Part shown: one piece after another, positions 2 through 21,116 of the stretch
How positions within the stretch are numbered: the first letter of the stretch is position 1
How the letters are laid out: each line of letters begins with the position of its first letter
Assembly: GCA_052390515.1 (NCBI GenBank)
Contig: JBQTGV010000073.1
Span: 1-21,413, forward strand
DNA length: 21,413 nucleotides
Direction of reading: 5' to 3'
Origin: Candidatus Eiseniibacteriota bacterium
GTDB taxonomy: Bacteria > ARS69
Notes under the pieces: generated by a model
The model's database searches: none
What the model was told of the DNA's origin: nothing
The model's input: only the letters and a program-made list of their open reading frames with translations
Position numbers and translations under genes: made by a program

Positions 2-427
2 TCGTCGGGCCGCGTCGTCGAGGTGCGCTGCACGCACGACCCGGCGACGCGCGCCGGACAGGCGCCCGACGGGCGGCGCCCGAAGGGCACGATCCACTGG
101 GTCAGCGCGGCGCACTCCGTTCCGGCGACGGTGCACCTCTACGACCATCTCTTCGCCGAGGCCGACGCGAGCGCCGACGCGACGCGATTCCGGGAGGCGC
201 TGCATCCGGCGTCCCGGGAGACGCTCAGCGGCTCCCGAGTGGAGCCGTCCCTCGCCGCGGCGGCGCCGGGCACGGTCTTCCAGTTCGAGCGGCTGGGCTA
301 CTTCTGCGTGGATCCGGCGTCCCGGGAAGGCCAGCCCGTGTTGAACCGGACGGTCTCCCTGCGGGACACCTGGGCGAAGATCGAAGCGCGGACTGGCAGG
401 CCCACGGGGAATCGAACCCCGGTTTGA
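2..427 (+). CDS. glnS: Glutamine--tRNA ligase, C-terminal anticodon-binding region (5' part outside window)
   Basis: Frame open from window start. Motifs KGTIHWVSA, LYDHLF, FQFERLGYFCVD and NRTVSLRDTW are typical of the GlnRS C-terminus. Stop TGA 425-427. Confidence 0.95.
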   Translation, partial: SSGRVVEVRCTHDPATRAGQAPDGRRPKGTIHWVSAAHSVPATVHLYDHLFAEADASADATRFREALHPASRETLSGSRVEPSLAAAAPGTVFQFERLGYFCVDPASREGQPVLNRTVSLRDTWAKIEARTGRPTGNRTPV

Positions 428-468
428 AGACTGAGAATCTCCCGTCCTGACCACTAGACGATGGGCCC
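394..468 (-). tRNA. tRNA-Glu (anticodon CTC)
   Basis: Reverse complement GGGCCCATCGTCTAGTGGTCAGGACGGGAGATTCTCAGTCTTCAAACCGGGGTTCGATTCCCCGTGGGCCTGCCA folds to a cloverleaf: anticodon loop TT-CTC-AG, GTTCGA T-loop, encoded CCA. Confidence 0.95.
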
Positions 469-494
469 GCCTCGTGTCCGCGAAGCGGTGAGGG

Positions 495-570
495 TGGCTG
501 GGGAGGAAGGACTCGAACCTTCAACCTCCTGATCCAGAGTCAGGCATCCTACCAATTGGACGACTCCCCA
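495..570 (-). tRNA. tRNA-Gln (anticodon CTG)
   Basis: Reverse complement TGGGGAGTCGTCCAATTGGTAGGATGCCTGACTCTGGATCAGGAGGTTGAAGGTTCGAGTCCTTCCTCCCCAGCCA: U1-A72, anticodon stem CCTGA/TCAGG, loop CT-CTG-GA, encoded CCA. Confidence 0.96.
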
Positions 571-15048: not shown

Positions 15049-15124
15049 GCGGGCATAACTCAGTTGGTAGAGTGTCAGCTTCCCAAGCTGAAAGTCGCGG
15101 GTTCGAATCCCGTTGCCCGCTCCA
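15049..15124 (+). tRNA. tRNA-Gly (anticodon CCC)
   Basis: GCGGGCATAACTCAGTTGGTAGAGTGTCAGCTTCCCAAGCTGAAAGTCGCGGGTTCGAATCCCGTTGCCCGCTCCA: stem TCAGC/GCTGA, loop TT-CCC-AA, U73, encoded CCA. Confidence 0.97.
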
Positions 15125-15556
15125 GCTGTCCTCCCGGTTCGTCATCTCCCGTGTTGCCCTCTGCCGGCGTTCGCACCGCTCCTCGTCACGCCGCTGCGCC
15201 ACGCCTTCGCCTGAGCGAGATCAGGCGCACCGCGCCTGTCCCGTCGCGGAGCGGGTGCGGATGCGACGTCCGGCGAGCACAGGAAGGTCGGAAGGTATCA
15301 GCCGCTGGGATCGCGGCCGATCGAGTCGTGAGAAGACGCGCATCAGCCATCAAGCGCTGAGCGGTCCTGCCTCAAAGGGGACGGAGGCGCCGTGCTCGTC
15401 AGGCTCGGTGCCTCCGCCGTTCACCGGAGCTGCGGAACCATCCGCTCCGACAGCCGGTCGGCTTGCCAGCCGGCTCGAAGCGATGGAGAATACGCGCCGC
15501 CGCGAAACCGCGCGCCGCCGCCACTGGGATCGCCGTTGTCTCGTGCCGCCGCCATC

Positions 15557-16939
15557 ATGCGCCTGGGGATCGCCGGCCTGCTCGCGTTCTGCGGCTGCGA
15601 GTCGTCGCCCCCTTCCGCCCTCGATCGCCCGAACATCGTCCTGCTGATCGCCGACGACCAGGACTTCGCCCATCTCGGATTCCAGGGCTCACCGGCGGTG
15701 CGCACTCCCGAGCTCGACCGGATCGCGCGGCAGGGAGCCGTCTTTCCCGATGCGCACCTGCCCATGTCCCGCTGCCGGCCGACGCTCGCCAGCTTCCTCT
15801 CCGGCCGCTGGCCGCACGAGACGGGGACGTACTTCGCCTACGGCGAGGGCACGCTGGATCCGGCGGGCTCCCTCCCGAGCCTCCTCCGCGACGCCGGCTA
15901 CGCCACCTTCGTAGCCGGGAAGTACTGGGAGGGTGACCCGCGCGAGATGGGCTTCACCCATGGATCGGGCAAGACGCAGAACAGCTTCGTCCGCGAAGGT
16001 CAGGAGGAACTCTTCGACTTCCTGGACGAGACCGGCGGCCGCCGCCCGCTGTTCGTGTGGTGGGCGCCGAAGCTCCCGCACACGCCGCACGATCCGCCGC
16101 ACGAGCACTTCGCTCCGTTCGCGGACGATCACGTCGTGCCGCCGCCGTGGGTCGGCCCCGACCGCGCCGACCTCTTCCGCGAGAAGGAGCGCGTGCTCTG
16201 GGCCATGATGTCGTGGCTCGACGACGCCGTCGCCGATCTTCGACGCCGCCTCGAGACGCTCGGTCTCGCGCGCCGCACGATCTGGATCTACGTGATCGAC
16301 AACGGCTGGGCGAACGGGGTCCCCTCGAAAGGCACGCCGTACGAGGCGGGCGTGCGCACGCCCATCGTCGTGGCCGGCCAGGGCGTCGCGGGGGGGCTCT
16401 TCGCCGACCTCGTCAGCACGCTCGACGTCACGCCGACGATCCTGGACTACGCCGGCATCTCCGTTCCCGCGGCTGCCGCCGGGCGAAGCCTGCGCCCGCG
16501 GATCGAGGCCGGCGCGGCCGCTTCCGCAGGTGCCGCCGCTCCCGCAGGTGCCACCGCTCCCGCCGGCGACCGGGGGATCCTCTTCGGCGCCGACTACGCC
16601 GCCTTCGCCGGAGGTCCGCAGCCCGACCCCGCCCGCGACGTCATCGCTCTCTACGCGCGCGACGGACGCTGGAAGTACATCCGCTGGATGCAGGACATCG
16701 AGGAGGGCGCGAACCTCGACCGCCTGCGCATCGTCCACGAGGCGGCCGACTTCCCGACGCGCCGCGCCGGCGATGAGGAGCTGTTCGATCTGGATGCCGA
16801 TCCGGCGGAGCGGAGCAACCTCGCGGGCGCCACCGAGCACGCCGAACGGGTCGCGCGGATGCGGGCCGCCGCGCAGGAGTGGTGGGCGAAGGCGTGCGCG
16901 GGGGCTCAGCCGGCGCCGGCGAGCCAGGCGAGCGGCTGA
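15557..16939 (+). CDS. Sulfatase (formylglycine-dependent S1 type), probable lipoprotein
   Basis: MRLGIAGLLAFCGC lipobox-like N-terminus; RPNIVLLIADD, RTPELDRIA, CRPTLASFLSG, GYATFVAGK, PHTPH, DNG, KGTPYEAGVRTP, DVTPTILD and ELFDLDADPAERSNLA motifs. Confidence 0.9.
   Translation: MRLGIAGLLAFCGCESSPPSALDRPNIVLLIADDQDFAHLGFQGSPAVRTPELDRIARQGAVFPDAHLPMSRCRPTLASFLSGRWPHETGTYFAYGEGTLDPAGSLPSLLRDAGYATFVAGKYWEGDPREMGFTHGSGKTQNSFVREGQEELFDFLDETGGRRPLFVWWAPKLPHTPHDPPHEHFAPFADDHVVPPPWVGPDRADLFREKERVLWAMMSWLDDAVADLRRRLETLGLARRTIWIYVIDNGWANGVPSKGTPYEAGVRTPIVVAGQGVAGGLFADLVSTLDVTPTILDYAGISVPAAAAGRSLRPRIEAGAAASAGAAAPAGATAPAGDRGILFGADYAAFAGGPQPDPARDVIALYARDGRWKYIRWMQDIEEGANLDRLRIVHEAADFPTRRAGDEELFDLDADPAERSNLAGATEHAERVARMRAAAQEWWAKACAGAQPAPASQASG
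16508..16567 (+). repeat. In-frame 18-bp tandem repeat (about 3.3 copies) inside the sulfatase
   Basis: GCCGGCGCGGCCGCTTCC / GCAGGTGCCGCCGCTCCC / GCAGGTGCCACCGCTCCC / GCCGGC, encoding AGAAAS-AGAAAP-AGATAP-AG. Confidence 0.85.
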
Positions 16940-18267
16940 CCCGCCGGGAGCGGGCGCATCTCCAGCAGGAAGGCGATCAGCTCGTCGTTCTCGCCGGCGC
17001 GGTGCGGGTTGAAGAACTCCCACACGATCTCGTTCGCCGGTGTCACCTCGAAGGCACGTCCGGCTTCGGTCTCGGTGATCAGCGTGTTGCCGTTCGCCAG
17101 GCGGTGGTTCGTCCCGCAGCACTCCGAATAGAAGTCGTTGGACTCGTCGCCGGAATAGGCCCAGACGACCTGCTGCGTGAGCGGGTCGATCTCCAGCACG
17201 CGGGAGCGTCCGCCGGTCGAACCGCTGTTGTCGAAGAGCAGCAGGTTGCCGTTGGGCAGGAACGTCGGGTCGTGGTTGCGGTGCGAGAAGCCGGAGAGCG
17301 CCCAGACCAGTTTGTTCTGGGCCATGTCCACGACGCCGACCACGCTGATGCGGTTGAACGAGACGAGCGCATTCCCCGCGCCGAAGGCCGGCGAGCGCGC
17401 AGCCAGCGATCCGTCCAGGATCTCCAGCGTGTTGGTGTGCAGCAGGTCGCCGGCCTCGGGCGCGCTGCCGAGGAACGGCGCGTAGTGCGACGCGCGAACC
17501 GCCTCGAGCAGGGAGTGGCGCTGCAGCTCCTCGCCGTTCGCGTCCAGCAGGCTCACGAAGTCCTCGAGCACGGGCCGCGTCGCGTGCACCTCGGGGATGA
17601 CGTGGGCTTCGCGGGTCAGCACCCAGATCTCGCCGCCGGGCATCACCTGGAAATCGTGGTGCGCGCCGTTGCGGTGCGCCCAGAGGATGTTGGAGTCCTG
17701 GTCGAGCTTGAGCAGCGCCTTGCCCTCGAAGATCACCAGGAGGTCGCCGGTCTCGTAGAGGTGCACCTTGCGGAAGTAGTGGAACGACGGCTGGTCGGCG
17801 GGTGCGGGCACTCCGGGGAAAGCCTCCTCGAAGGAGCGCCTCCAGGCATGCCGAACGACGCCGGTGCGGTCCATGAGGATGGCCATCGGCGCATGCCCCG
17901 ACGTGTAGAGGAGCATCTCCGCGCCGGCCTTCTCGCGGTCGTAGACGGTGACGCCGGTCGTCTCCGGGGCCTCCTCGTCCGCGGACAGGTACCCGAGGGC
18001 GCGGAGGCGCTCCACCTCCTCCTGCTGCAGCGAGGCGAGCTGCTCGCCACCGGCCTGCTCGGCGCGCGCCCAGTGTCCCGGCTCGGCCGCATCCTCGCCG
18101 CGCCCGGGTGCGCGGTCGGCGAGACCGAGCTTCTCGGTGAGCGAGCTCATCAGGGCGAAAGGGGGAGACCGCTTCTCGTGGACGAGGAAGCCGGCGAAGA
18201 AGCTCGCCGGGAGCGCGGCCAGCAAGGCCGCGGCGAGCACGAGGCGGCCTCCGATGCCACGACTCAT
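16906..18267 (-). CDS. Arylsulfotransferase (ASST-family beta-propeller), membrane-anchored
   Basis: N-terminal TM; AHHDF, DLLHTNTL, RNHDPTFLPNGNLLLFDN, SRVLEIDP and RLANGNTLITETEAGRAFEVTPANEIVWEF are ASST-type motifs. GGAG upstream of the ATG. Confidence 0.88.
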   Translation of the reverse strand: MSRGIGGRLVLAAALLAALPASFFAGFLVHEKRSPPFALMSSLTEKLGLADRAPGRGEDAAEPGHWARAEQAGGEQLASLQQEEVERLRALGYLSADEEAPETTGVTVYDREKAGAEMLLYTSGHAPMAILMDRTGVVRHAWRRSFEEAFPGVPAPADQPSFHYFRKVHLYETGDLLVIFEGKALLKLDQDSNILWAHRNGAHHDFQVMPGGEIWVLTREAHVIPEVHATRPVLEDFVSLLDANGEELQRHSLLEAVRASHYAPFLGSAPEAGDLLHTNTLEILDGSLAARSPAFGAGNALVSFNRISVVGVVDMAQNKLVWALSGFSHRNHDPTFLPNGNLLLFDNSGSTGGRSRVLEIDPLTQQVVWAYSGDESNDFYSECCGTNHRLANGNTLITETEAGRAFEVTPANEIVWEFFNPHRAGENDELIAFLLEMRPLPAGQPLAWLAGAG

Positions 18268-18343: not shown

Positions 18344-18461
18344 GGCGGTGGCGGCGTTGCCACTCCGCCGACCCTGTGGTGAACTGGCCGGCCGCGCGCC
18401 GCCCGCTGCCGTTCAAGCGGAGGCGCCGGAAAGCCGTCGAGTCCGGAGGGGGCGAAGCTCG

Positions 18462-21116
18462 ATGACGACGTTGCAGGGGAGCGCCGCGCTTCTCCTCGCC
18501 CGGGTGGGGGTGGTGCTGGCCGCGGGGGCGGCCGCGGCGAACGTGTTCCAGTTCGATCCGCTGGCGGTCCCGTCCCGGGAACAGCAGGTGCTGATCCTGG
18601 CCGGGCTCCTCCTCGGAGCCGGCGGGACGGCCTGGGCGATGCTCCGGGGGAGCCTCGGTCCGGGCCCCTTCGCGTCGGCCGCCGGCCGCTTCCTGCTCGT
18701 CGCCGTGCAGGTCGCGCTGCTCGTGCAGGTCATCCAGGCGTTCGAGATCGAGAGCCCGGTCTTCGCCGAGCGCGTGATCCCGCTGGCCGCACTCGGCTTC
18801 GTCGTGAACCACGTCCTGCCGGCGCGGCTTCGCCTGCCGTTCTTCGCCTGCCTCTCCCTGGTCGGGATCGGGCTCGTGTTCGGGGCGAAGCAGGCAACTT
18901 GGCTGATCGCCATCGGCGTCGGTCTGATCGGCCTGTGCGAGCTGCCGGTTCCGTTCGCCCTGCGGGTGCTGCTGGTCGTCGGCGCCGGCGCCTGCCTGGC
19001 GCTGCAGCGGGCCGGAAAGCTGCCTTCGCCGTGGTCCGGAGCCATCTGGCCGATCCTCGGCTCCATGTTCATGTTCCGGCTCGTCGTCTACCTCTACGAC
19101 CTTCGCCACCGCCGCGAGCCGTTCCATCCCTGGCGGGCCCTCTCGTACTTCTTCATGCTGCCGAACGTCGTCTTCCCGCTCTTCCCGGTGGTCGACTACG
19201 CCACGTTCCAGCGCACCTGGTACGACCGCAAGGACGCCTGCGAAATCTACCAACGCGGAATCCGCTGGATGCTGCTCGGCGTGACGCATCTCGTGATGTA
19301 CCGGGCGGTGTACCAGTACCTGACCATCTCCCCGACCGAGGTCGTCGATGCGTCGAAATTCGGCCACTACGTCACCGCGAACTTCCTGCTCTACTTCCGC
19401 GTGTCCGGCCAGTTCCACCTGATCTGCGGGATCCTGCACCTCTTCGGCTTCCACCTGCCGGAGACGCACCGCCTGTTCTTCTTCTCCTCGAGCTTCAACG
19501 ACTTCTGGCGGCGCATCAACATCTACTGGAAGGACTTCATGATGAAGGTCGTGTACTTCCCGACCTTCTTCCGGCTCCGCAAGTCCGGCGAGACGCCCGC
19601 GCTGATCGTGGCCACCGTGCTGGTCTTCTTCGTCACCTGGATCACGCACTCGTACCAGTGGTTCTGGATCCTCGGCGAATGGCTGATCTCGCTCACCGAC
19701 ATGATGTTCTGGGGGATCCTGGCGCTGGCCCTGATCGGCAACACGCTCTGGGAGATGCGCGCCGGACGGAAGCGTGCACTCGTTCCCAAGGCGCGCCCGC
19801 TCGCCGACATCGCGCTGTCCGCGCTCCGTACGGTTCTCTTCTTCGTCCTGATGAGCGTGCTCTGGTCGCTGTGGACCGCGCCCACGCTCGCCGGCTGGGG
19901 GGCGCTGGTGGGCGCGGCGGGAGCGGATCCGGCCGGCTGGCTCGTGCCGCTCGCGGTGCTGGCCGGGGCGGTGGTCGTGGTGGCGGCGGGCATGAAGCTC
20001 GGCGAGACCTGGCGCGGCAGCGGACCGTCCGCGCGGCTCCATCCCGCGTGGATCACGGTTCCCGCGCTGCTCGCGATGCTGTTGGTCACGAGCCCGCGTC
20101 TCGCCGCGCGGCTCCCGGTTCGCGGCCAGGAGTTCGTGCGGGACCTGCGCATCCCCGGTTTGAACCGCGAGGACCAGGAGCTGATGGAGCGCGGCTACTA
20201 CGAGAAGCTCACCAAGGTGAACCGCTTCAACAGCCAGCTCTGGGAGGTCTATGCAAAGAAGGGCGACAGCGCGCCGCCGCCGATCCGCCGTCCGACGGGG
20301 GATTTCCAGGGACTGGAGAACATCCCGCTGCTCGGCGTCACCTACAAGGGGCAGCCGCTGCGCACGAACCAGTGGGGGATGCGGGATCGGGACTACGATC
20401 TGGTGAAGCCGGAAGGCACCTACCGCATCGCACTCATGGGCGCGTCCTACGTGATGGGGTCGGGCGTCGGCGACGGGGAGACGTTCGAGTGGCTGCTCGA
20501 GGACCGGTTGAACCGCGAAGCGACGGCCGAGGGCAGGCCTGCGGTCGAGATCCTCAACTTCGCGGTGGGCACGCTCTCCTCCGCGCAGCAGCTCTACATG
20601 CTGCAGAAGCGCGTGCTGCCGTTCGATCCGGACGCGGTCGTGCTCGTCTCCCCGGCGACGGACGCGGACCTCTTCGCCCGGTACCTGTACCGCAGCCGCG
20701 ACGAGAACGTGGAGATTCCCTACGAGTACCTGCGCGGGATCATCGAGCGGGTGGGCATCGACTCGACGACGACGGAGGAGAGCGCGATGCAGCTGCTCTA
20801 CCCGGTGCGCACCGAGATCCTCGAGTGGGTCTACCGCGAGTTCGCCAGCGAGTGCACGAGCCGCGACGTCCTGCCGGTGTTCGTGTACCTCACGCTGCCG
20901 GGGCGCACGCCCGACGTCGAGCTGATCGAGGAGCAGATCCGTCTCGCGAAGGACTCGGGGTTCGTCACCTTCGACCTGCGCGACGTGTACGACGGCTTCG
21001 ACCCGAAGAAGCTGCAGGTGGCGTCCTGGGACTGGCACCCGAATCCGCGGGGGCACCGCATCATCGCCGAGCGCCTCCACCGCGACTTCACCGCCAGCGG
21101 GAACGTGCTGCCCTGA
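18462..21116 (+). CDS. MBOAT-family O-acyltransferase fused to a C-terminal SGNH/GDSL domain (884 aa)
   Basis: Polytopic N-terminal region with SFNDFWRRINIYWKDF and FFVTWITHSYQWFW (position of the MBOAT His). C-terminal soluble domain with TNQWGMRD, RIALMGASYVMG, ILNFAVG and DWHPNPRGH. GGAGGGGG upstream of ATG 18462. Confidence 0.85.
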   Translation: MTTLQGSAALLLARVGVVLAAGAAAANVFQFDPLAVPSREQQVLILAGLLLGAGGTAWAMLRGSLGPGPFASAAGRFLLVAVQVALLVQVIQAFEIESPVFAERVIPLAALGFVVNHVLPARLRLPFFACLSLVGIGLVFGAKQATWLIAIGVGLIGLCELPVPFALRVLLVVGAGACLALQRAGKLPSPWSGAIWPILGSMFMFRLVVYLYDLRHRREPFHPWRALSYFFMLPNVVFPLFPVVDYATFQRTWYDRKDACEIYQRGIRWMLLGVTHLVMYRAVYQYLTISPTEVVDASKFGHYVTANFLLYFRVSGQFHLICGILHLFGFHLPETHRLFFFSSSFNDFWRRINIYWKDFMMKVVYFPTFFRLRKSGETPALIVATVLVFFVTWITHSYQWFWILGEWLISLTDMMFWGILALALIGNTLWEMRAGRKRALVPKARPLADIALSALRTVLFFVLMSVLWSLWTAPTLAGWGALVGAAGADPAGWLVPLAVLAGAVVVVAAGMKLGETWRGSGPSARLHPAWITVPALLAMLLVTSPRLAARLPVRGQEFVRDLRIPGLNREDQELMERGYYEKLTKVNRFNSQLWEVYAKKGDSAPPPIRRPTGDFQGLENIPLLGVTYKGQPLRTNQWGMRDRDYDLVKPEGTYRIALMGASYVMGSGVGDGETFEWLLEDRLNREATAEGRPAVEILNFAVGTLSSAQQLYMLQKRVLPFDPDAVVLVSPATDADLFARYLYRSRDENVEIPYEYLRGIIERVGIDSTTTEESAMQLLYPVRTEILEWVYREFASECTSRDVLPVFVYLTLPGRTPDVELIEEQIRLAKDSGFVTFDLRDVYDGFDPKKLQVASWDWHPNPRGHRIIAERLHRDFTASGNVLP

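Follow-up and report, generated by a model that had tools for sequence, protein, structure and literature searches.

A tyrosine-ending helical tag shared by a membrane-tethered arylsulfotransferase-like family and the C-termini of AlkP-like enzymes

The closest described relatives of the protein considered here are the Streptomyces sulfotransferase Cpz4 and the arylsulfotransferases (ASSTs) of E. coli and D. hafniense. Cpz4 reportedly draws its sulfate from a dedicated small phenolic carrier, the product of a type III polyketide synthase and a sulfotransferase that uses 3′-phosphoadenosine 5′-phosphosulfate (PAPS). The catalytic residues at the cavity base of the D. hafniense ASST are His220, His283, Asn285 and His350, according to the accessible part of a preprint (10.64898/2026.10.08.757636), and in the accessible part of another source most PAPS-independent sulfotransferases are described as having physiological donors, acceptors and roles that are still obscure (PMC13426309). 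Here, we analyse a 21,413-nt stretch of DNA from a Candidatus Eiseniibacteriota bacterium (contig JBQTGV010000073.1, positions 1 to 21,413; hereafter the window), which encodes a membrane-tethered ASST-like protein of 453 amino acids. Directly before its β-propeller, this protein carries a short helix that ends in Gly-Tyr (the helix-GY tag), and an earlier note on the same DNA had read the tyrosine, Tyr93, as a possible built-in sulfate carrier. We find that the tyrosine is nearly invariant, that a very similar helix-GY core forms the extreme C-terminus of a second large family of AlkP-like enzymes, and that genes for GT-C glycosyltransferases adjoin ASST genes in some related loci and are fused to tagged ones in some homologues. 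The gene itself belongs to the known ASST superfamily; what appears to be new is the tag, together with its connection to AlkP-like C-termini and GT-C enzymes. We tentatively read the tag as a portable docking element. The features of the gene on which the analysis rests are the following.

16906..18267, minus strand: ASST-like gene, 453 amino acids, a membrane-tethered, extracytoplasmic six-bladed β-propeller (open reading frame (ORF), Pfam, AlphaFold2, Foldseek)
18172..18255, minus strand: N-terminal transmembrane signal-anchor, residues 5–32, N-in/C-out (AlphaFold2 helix and flanking charges of homologues)
18031..18129, minus strand: low-complexity disordered linker, residues 47–79 (predicted local distance difference test score (pLDDT) below 50 at residues 52–60 and 68–79)
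17965..18039, minus strand: the motif, residues L77–P101, a capped amphipathic helix (80–90) followed by G92-Y93 (translation, alignment, hidden Markov model (HMM), AlphaFold2)
17989..17991, minus strand: tac codon of the invariant Tyr93 (translation and alignment)
16909..17955, minus strand: six-bladed propeller, residues 105–453 (DSSP strand list of the AlphaFold2 model)
17653..17661, minus strand: H203-H204-D205, first catalytic His cluster (H203 and H204 invariant; aligns with Cpz4 H139-D140)
17431..17439, minus strand: H277-T278-N279, the H-x-N element (alignment; H-I-N in Cpz4)
17272..17274, minus strand: H332 of N-H-D, candidate sulfo-histidine carrier (invariant; aligns with Q-H-D of Cpz4)

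By family profile, propeller fold and catalytic residues alike, the 453-residue protein ranks as an unremarkable ASST-superfamily member. It matches the Pfam families Arylsulfotran_2 (PF14269) over residues 174–418 (E = 6.8e-21; 75.4 bits against a cut-off of 27) and Arylsulfotrans (PF05935; E = 1.6e-10; 41 bits against a cut-off of 24.2), and no NCBIfam family matches it. An AlphaFold2 model built on 113 homologues (mean pLDDT 89.9) consists of the transmembrane helix (residues 5–32), a second helix (37–46), the low-confidence linker, the helix of the tag (80–90) and, from residue 105 onwards, the propeller strands, of which 24 are blade strands and one is a C-terminal strand. The linker holds a nearly invariant glycine (G64, at least 90% conserved) within a conserved G-R/H-W element. 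Searched against the Protein Data Bank (PDB) with Foldseek, the model hits Cpz4 best (9kf6, E = 8.6e-16, TM-score 0.54), followed by E. coli ASST (3elq/3ets, E about 1e-10 to 1e-11). The window protein shares with Cpz4 (9kf4/9kf6) and with the E. coli and D. hafniense ASSTs the six-bladed propeller, the two Pfam families and conserved His elements that align with those of Cpz4; its identity to the solved structures is only 13–19%. Features that set it apart from these enzymes are the N-terminal signal-anchor, the disordered linker and the tyrosine tag. It also lacks the N- and C-terminal β-sandwich domains that the accessible part of the preprint describes for the classical ASSTs (10.64898/2026.10.08.757636).

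As in classical ASSTs, the propeller lies outside the cytoplasm, and the tag with it, because the residues flanking the anchor show a charge bias (2.7 Lys/Arg and 0.36 Asp/Glu before the segment, 1.7 Lys/Arg and 2.1 Asp/Glu after it, across homologues) and because one homologue, P0075, has a lipobox, the mark of a lipoprotein signal, in place of the anchor. A hydrophobic N-terminal segment is present in 84 of the 103 homologues that start with Met and absent from 19; the other 17 of the 120 homologues have no Met start and were left unscored.

H203, H204, N279 and H332 are invariant in the homologue alignment, H277 is at least 90% conserved, and D205 and T278 are likewise invariant or nearly so, in keeping with the His clusters (AHHD, HTN and NHD) that had been picked out from the sequence. 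The family profile aligns the H-D, H-x-N and Q-H-D elements with those of Cpz4, and by its position H332 would be the sulfo-His carrier. The H277-T278-N279 element also resembles His283/Asn285 in the accessible description of the D. hafniense enzyme (10.64898/2026.10.08.757636). In the model, the catalytic histidines lie where the inner strands begin in blades 3, 4 and 5 (H203/H204 before 202–208, H277 before 278–283 and H332 in 331–336). The repeating x-V-W strand pattern suggests that strand 105–109 is inner strand A of blade 1. Since the N-terminal extension enters blade 1 at the point equivalent to these His positions, the tag would lie on the catalytic face of the propeller, within about 12 residues of the cavity, and a location far from the active site is unlikely.

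The minus-strand reading around the motif is LASLQQEEVERLRALGYLSADEE, also given as EQLASLQQEEVERLRALGYLSADEEAPETTGVTVYD. Translation and model agree with the order described in the earlier note: a transmembrane anchor, a linker and then EEVERLRALGY ahead of the propeller, the stretch at 17986–18030 corresponding to residues L80–L94 and the Tyr93 codon, tac, lying at 17991–17989. Tyr93 itself stands in A-L-G-Y-L-S-A, 12 residues before the propeller. A word-index search that scored 8000 candidates returned 958 relatives at E ≤ 1e-3, and 113 of the best 120 homologues (43–86% identical to the window protein, the closest relative being P0002 at 86%) were aligned; the seven left out as partial or near-duplicate (P0005, P0018, P0043, P0054, P0073, P0085 and P0109) include six that also have the GY motif. 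The consensus of the ASST family reads L-T-x-E-Q-x-x-E-I-x-x-L-x-A-I-G-Y-L-x-G-S-x-x-A-P. Within it, L88 is Leu in 110 of the 113 sequences, G92 is Gly in 108 and G96 in 104, and position 93 is Tyr in 112, with a single Ser (P0076) and no Phe at all. The N-cap is Thr or Ser in only 73 of the 113, and Tyr93 is the sole invariant hydroxyl of the tag.

For comparison, 79 related loci were fetched from a genome collection. A 28-column motif HMM run against all six-frame ORFs of these loci and the window gave 33 matches at an independent E value (i-E) below 0.01 and none in reversed sequences; the motif is far beyond chance. The loci hold 92 ASST-like ORFs, of which 71 could be assessed for a motif within 40 residues before the propeller. 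Fifty-one of the 71 carry it (35 as GY, 15 as PY and one as AY), and every one of the 51 has Tyr and no other aromatic residue, so that the tolerance of Phe that the earlier note had named as a refutation of its model was seen neither here nor in the alignment. The motif lies at a constant distance of about 350–370 residues from the C-terminus. The remaining 20 ORFs, which lack it, include a transmembrane-anchored, mainly alphaproteobacterial group with a different juxtamembrane segment, P...L..AY..G.AL[YW]...W..R (L032, L034, L037, L038, L040, L046, L022, L056 and others), and a group of short, apparently cytoplasmic forms from, for example, Dehalococcoidia and Nostoc. Two loci (L005:2700-11134 and L012:3369-7423) each encode three tandem ASST-like paralogues, and every copy has its own tag.

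The helix of the tag is predicted with fair confidence (block mean pLDDT about 77 in the window protein), and a second model, of homologue P0075 with a canonical motif, places a helix at residues 66–77 (pLDDT 71–73 over residues 61–90) after a disordered linker. We take L-T-x-E-Q to be a helix capping box, and L88, G92 (Pro in divergent forms) and Y93 to be C3, C′ and C′′ of a Schellman or Pro C-cap. V/I85, L88, L/I91, Y93 and L94, which are hydrophobic, fall on one face. Beyond the cap, the pLDDT of the window protein drops below 50 at residues 94–96 and a lone β-bridge follows at residue 99; P0075 has a β-bridge at residue 86, six after its Tyr80; the bridged residue thus lies six positions after the tyrosine in both models. 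Because this residue is pinned in both, the mobile swinging arm that the earlier note had pictured would be short and partly pinned, not long. A complex prediction with the propeller (104–453) and the tag segment (62–103) supplied as alignments, run without controls, scored 0.57, 0.24 and 0.28 (mark, 0.32).

We searched a 30-column profile of the motif against 1.84 billion representative proteins and obtained 89 at E ≤ 1e-3. Sixty-six of these are ASST propellers, 17 are short fragments (51–162 amino acids) that read like ASST N-termini, five are unrelated repeat proteins (mTERF, HA domain and tail-fibre-like), and one, P0202, is a 99-residue fragment with two tandem copies, the second at its very end. 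On this breakdown, the complete motif, with G-S-x-x-A-P behind the tyrosine, is an ASST-specific feature. Its helix-GY half is found more widely: it forms the extreme C-terminus of seven PF00884 ‘sulfatases’ in ASST loci (for example ELRALGYIQ-stop and KLRALGYLQ-stop) and of two PF01663 proteins there (RLKGLGYI-stop and RLSALGY-stop). In the 850 ORFs of the loci that do not encode ASSTs and that end at a real stop, the pattern L..[LIVM]GY was counted eight times within the final 12 residues and 15 times in the remainder, a 16.6-fold C-terminal enrichment (binomial P = 2.8e-7). A DUF2061 membrane protein (L026:17188-17532, ending LKSLGYID-stop) and a CysD (L054:375-1334, ending LRSLGYM-stop) have such an end too; for CysD, this is presumably the typical C-terminus of its family.

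With a tailed lipoprotein of the sulfatase/NPP-like type as query (L052:7799-9943), 3144 relatives were found at E ≤ 1e-3. Of the best 120 of these, 107 end in L-x-x-L-G-Y within their last 15 residues, mostly with 0–3 residues after the tyrosine, and the residue is Tyr in 107 of 107, never Phe, Trp or His; the statement in the earlier note that RLxxLGY is usual at the C-terminus of sulfatase- and phosphodiesterase-like proteins is therefore borne out. The tail-bearing sulfatase-like proteins of the loci are not formylglycine sulfatases, because all seven lack the C-x-P-x-R that the tail-less sulfatases of the same loci have. An NPP-type nucleophile motif, T-x-P-[SAT]-H, is present in 77 of the 120 relatives, an N-terminal hydrophobic segment in 66 and a lipobox-like site in 18.

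The two families detect each other. At i-E < 0.01, the ASST helix HMM matches 29 of the 120 AlkP-like proteins and no reversed sequence, and at i-E < 1 it matches 97; of the 29 matches, 28 fall within eight residues of the C-terminus. The tail HMM matches 16 of 120 ASSTs, again with none in the reversed control. Shared between the ASST tag and the tails of the Thr-type AlkP-like enzymes (PF00884 and PF01663) are the helix-GY core, the invariant tyrosine and this mutual detection; the ASST, like the tailed enzymes, is extracytoplasmic, and both occur in the same loci. They differ in that the ASST motif is internal, N-terminal to the propeller, whereas the tail is the extreme C-terminus; the helix of the tail is about three residues shorter and lacks the G-S-x-x-A-P continuation, and its N-cap, L-[S/T/D], stands at −13/−12 from the tyrosine instead of −16/−15. 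The domain contexts that the earlier note had proposed to list by HMM therefore divide: the full motif is confined to ASSTs, but its helix-GY half extends to AlkP-like C-termini.

The helix-GY tag appears to be undescribed. Neither Pfam nor NCBIfam has a family for the AlkP-like tail at the thresholds used, and our literature search found no description of the tag or of an LGY tail. The motif profile found nothing meaningful in the PDB sequence set (best E 0.14, to the capping box only); a search of the ESM Atlas with residues 72–103, skipping ASST families, gave no usable match, and a word-index search of longer proteins with region 66–105 gave 0 of 72 candidates at E ≤ 10.

The related loci also place the family in a recurrent context. 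In eight of the 79 (L008, L029, L019, L010, L007, L013, L027 and L068), the ASST gene adjoins one for a protein of about 530 amino acids with 9–10 transmembrane segments, whose profile matches the mycobacterial arabinosyltransferase AftB (PDB 9dlf, E = 8.9e-26); this AftB-like GT-C has no Pfam match at E ≤ 1e-3, PMT_2/PMT appearing only at E 0.002–0.006, below the curated cut-offs. In P0129, P0157 and P0199, the same protein is fused upstream of the tag and the ASST, and P0133 matches only the C-terminal soluble part of the AftB-like neighbour. Three loci have PMT_2 GT-C genes, in one case with TPR repeats, and a single locus has a GT87 gene; AlkP-like genes are found in 15 of the 79 loci, some encoded beside the ASSTs. 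Locus L019 (6209-12845) has an operon-like run of UbiA+HAD, FAD_binding_4, short-chain dehydrogenase, ASST-like and AftB-like GT-C genes, preceded by two AlkP-like genes, one with an LGYI tail; we take this set to resemble one for polyprenyl-phospho-arabinose synthesis together with its transferase. Because AftB-like and PMT-type GT-C genes recur around it, the ASST family belongs to periplasmic glycan tailoring. PAPS-type Sulfotransfer_3 genes adjoin ASST-like genes in seven of the 79 loci, and the ASST-like ORF is tag-less in at least six of these (L034, L038, L040, L042, L046 and L053), L039 not being assessable. Most of the seven loci belong to the transmembrane-anchored, mainly alphaproteobacterial group without the tag, and such a gene next to an ASST of this group could form a two-step sulfation system.

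The reading that we favour, tentatively and short of an even chance, is that residues 77–101 are a portable recognition or docking tag in the form of a capped amphipathic helix. Order in the periplasmic part would begin with this helix, which ends in L-x-x-[LI]-[G/P]-Y and leads into the propeller some 12 residues further on. A single partner or surface would read it on both the ASST and the AlkP-like families, with the tyrosine hydroxyl needed for contact; the likeliest partner would come from the machinery that builds periplasmic glycans, in the shape of the GT-C glycosyltransferases found next to the ASST or fused with it. Docking is the most economical account because a self-capped helix of about 20 residues is portable between two extracytoplasmic enzyme families, and the mutual HMM detection, the helix character and the recurrent GT-C context are in line with it, as is the lack of the motif in cytoplasmic-type ASST homologues. 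Short terminal docking helices and linear motifs are familiar from TPR clamps and from the docking domains of modular synthases. By analogy, the tag may be one more short autonomous helix, placed at a terminus or linker and portable between folds, but known docking helices are read by a partner domain, whereas for the tag the GT-C machinery is only a candidate reader.

Several observations weigh against docking. No partner for the tag was identified in the examined loci, and the GT-C neighbours occur in only nine of the 79 and are absent from the window. The difference in N-cap register between ASST tags and AlkP-like tails leaves room for convergence on a capped helix, and the scores of the mTERF, HA-domain and tail-fibre-like repeats mark the L..LG-aromatic cap as a generic structural pattern. 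The LGY ends of CysD and DUF2061 proteins fit poorly with a purely periplasmic reader, and two PF01663 tail proteins (L019:2155-4128 and L075:1474-2955) start without a signal peptide. Finally, an interface tyrosine usually tolerates some Phe, and its complete absence from more than 260 sequences points to hydroxyl chemistry.

The ASST gene of the window has neighbours of several kinds.

15392..16939, plus strand: sulfatase-like neighbour, convergent with the ASST gene, no tag (PF00884, E = 5.6e-29)
18348..21116, plus strand: divergent gene for a multi-transmembrane protein of 922 amino acids, weakly MBOAT/DltB-like with a fused C-terminal SGNH/GDSL part (GDSL matches; TIGR04091, E = 0.0021)
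394-570, minus strand: tRNA-Glu(CTC) and tRNA-Gln(CTG)
15049-15124, plus strand: tRNA-Gly(CCC)

The sulfatase-like ORF and the ASST gene overlap convergently by 34 nt at their 3′ ends. The probable true start of the former is M56 at 15557, followed by the signal-like MRLGIAGLLAFCGC, and where formylglycine sulfatases show C-x-P-x-R it reads C-R-P-T-L-A-S-F-L-S-G-R, with the Arg missing. As the earlier note had stated, this neighbour lacks the motif: [LIVM]..[LIVM]GY has exactly one match in all six frames of the window, the one in the ASST. The MBOAT-SGNH fusion has eleven hydrophobic segments and probably starts at the ATG of residue 39 (18462). At the end of one of its transmembrane segments, residues 436–441 (19653–19670) read H-S-Y-Q-W-F, one residue off F-X-Y-X-X-F, by which MBOAT-SGNH systems shuttle acyl groups. 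Both neighbours were considered as conserved partners of the ASST and rejected, the sulfatase-like protein matching seven of the 79 loci and the 922-residue protein one, through its SGNH part only. Upstream lies a housekeeping block of pfkB-type kinase, miaB-like, TPR, SPOR, mutS, mutL, miaA and tRNA-Gly genes, and tRNA-Gly(CCC) divides the miaA end of this block from the envelope-modification genes.

The other accounts of the tag make the tyrosine a chemical participant or give the helix a role within its own protein. The earlier note had proposed that Tyr93 is a sulfate carrier on a swinging arm, loaded by a membrane partner and passing its sulfuryl group to the sulfo-His for the sulfation of an envelope polymer, and we consider this very improbable. 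The periplasm is without PAPS, and a carrier is needed there in principle; tyrosine is a phenol, is invariant here without any Phe, and would, judging from the model, enter on the catalytic face. In the accessible part of one source, ASSTs are described as sulfating tyrosine and tyrosine peptides, and early work as reporting that the Eubacterium A-44 enzyme passes through a sulfo-Tyr intermediate and that an N-terminal tyrosine, Tyr123, is essential in the E. amnigenus enzyme; according to the same text, however, the carrier in the E. coli ASST crystal structure is His436 and not a tyrosine, and Tyr96 is far from the site (PMC13426309). The precedent invoked in the earlier note, a DltX tyrosine that carries acyl groups, is confirmed in the accessible part of a second source, where the covalent Tyr intermediate of DltX and PatA, within an FXYXXF motif, is established for MBOAT-SGNH pathways that modify envelope polymers (PMC12148441). 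With these shuttles the tag has in common an invariant tyrosine in an extracytoplasmic segment of a membrane-tethered protein and a cell-envelope modification context. It differs in reading L-x-x-L-G-Y, in the position of Tyr93, which is 61 residues from the transmembrane helix (ending at 32) across a disordered linker instead of at the helix end, and in having an MBOAT-SGNH neighbour in only one of 79 loci; the chemistry of DltX and PatA is moreover acyl and not sulfuryl transfer. A DltX-type shuttle was accordingly rejected, since the hexapeptide and the position at a transmembrane end are wanting and the obligatory MBOAT and SGNH pair, though present in the window, is matched in only one of the 79 loci, by its SGNH part. 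Nor was any membrane sulfotransferase or other loader found in the window or the 79 loci, the MBOAT-SGNH neighbour being one of acyl chemistry, and the window encodes no PAPS-dependent sulfotransferase that could load a phenolic carrier in the manner of the two-step Cpz8/Cpz6/Cpz4 sulfation. In at least six of the seven loci with Sulfotransfer_3 genes the ASST is tag-less, the same tag is carried by Thr-nucleophile AlkP-superfamily enzymes without sulfo-His chemistry, and Tyr93 is just six residues from a pinned position. What stands of the proposed route to sulfated envelope polymers is the envelope-glycan modification context; the sulfate-carrier mechanism finds no support. More broadly, it is unlikely, though less so, that the tyrosine is a covalent site of some kind, either as sulfo-Tyr made and used by the ASST propeller or as the bearer of a Tyr-linked glycan made by a GT-C enzyme. 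Its more specific form, in which the helix is the sequon of a modification site and the ASST sulfates the tyrosine (its own and, in trans, those of the AlkP-like tails) or a GT-C enzyme attaches a glycan, is rather doubtful. Protein glycosylation is an activity of PMT enzymes, and the pilins of P. aeruginosa receive a glycan on their C-terminal residue through PilO or arabinofuranose through TfpW. The tyrosine is the tag’s only invariant hydroxyl, it lies open to solvent in a linker or at an extreme C-terminus, GT-C enzymes are adjacent or fused, and the UbiA+HAD, FAD_binding_4 and dehydrogenase set of L019 stands beside an ASST and an AftB-like gene. Yet some tail-bearing proteins are apparently cytoplasmic, the scarcity of GT-C neighbours counts here too, and Tyr glycosylation is not an established activity of the GT-C families.

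Another unlikely reading keeps the tag within the molecule, as a lid over the propeller cavity with Tyr93 as a pocket or gating residue. The predicted entry of the extension into blade 1, equivalent to the His positions of blades 3, 4 and 5, would suit it, as would the shared β-bridge, a helix pLDDT of 71–77 and not below 50, and the short form of this ASST without extra β-sandwich domains. The accessible part of the D. hafniense preprint describes a pocket with Tyr194, Tyr416 and Tyr487 and a mobile entrance loop, 575–591 (10.64898/2026.10.08.757636). A lid leaves unexplained why the same tag ends proteins of a different fold, and the confidence drop at residues 94–96 of the window protein also speaks against it. 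Quite improbable is the plainest account, that the motif is a mere capped-helix spacer between linker and propeller with no specific partner and that it resembles the AlkP-like tails by convergence. The recurrence of the L..LG-aromatic cap in unrelated helical repeat proteins and the differing N-cap registers agree with that account; but generic caps, as in mTERF and HA repeats, take Phe freely, whereas the tag has Tyr in 112 of 113, 51 of 51 and 107 of 107 sequences and keeps it even in the more distant PY forms, and a fixed distance to the propeller among homologues of 43–86% identity would be unexpected of a spacer.

Extracytoplasmic sulfation in bacteria, which has to do without PAPS, is a standing problem. 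The analysis defines a large, membrane-tethered ASST-like subfamily, linked by adjacency and fusion to GT-C glycan-building enzymes, and a tag of about 20 residues with a conserved tyrosine that is common to a second large family, with 3144 relatives. If the tyrosine is a covalent site after all, sulfo-Tyr would be a protein-borne aryl sulfate, a PAPS-free sulfate donor in the periplasm; the GT-C version would be a new bacterial Tyr-linked modification, and the same tag would mark the AlkP-like enzymes as members of the same system. Even as a shared docking tag, the reading that we prefer, it would bring a pair of ‘orphan’ enzyme families together in a single envelope pathway.

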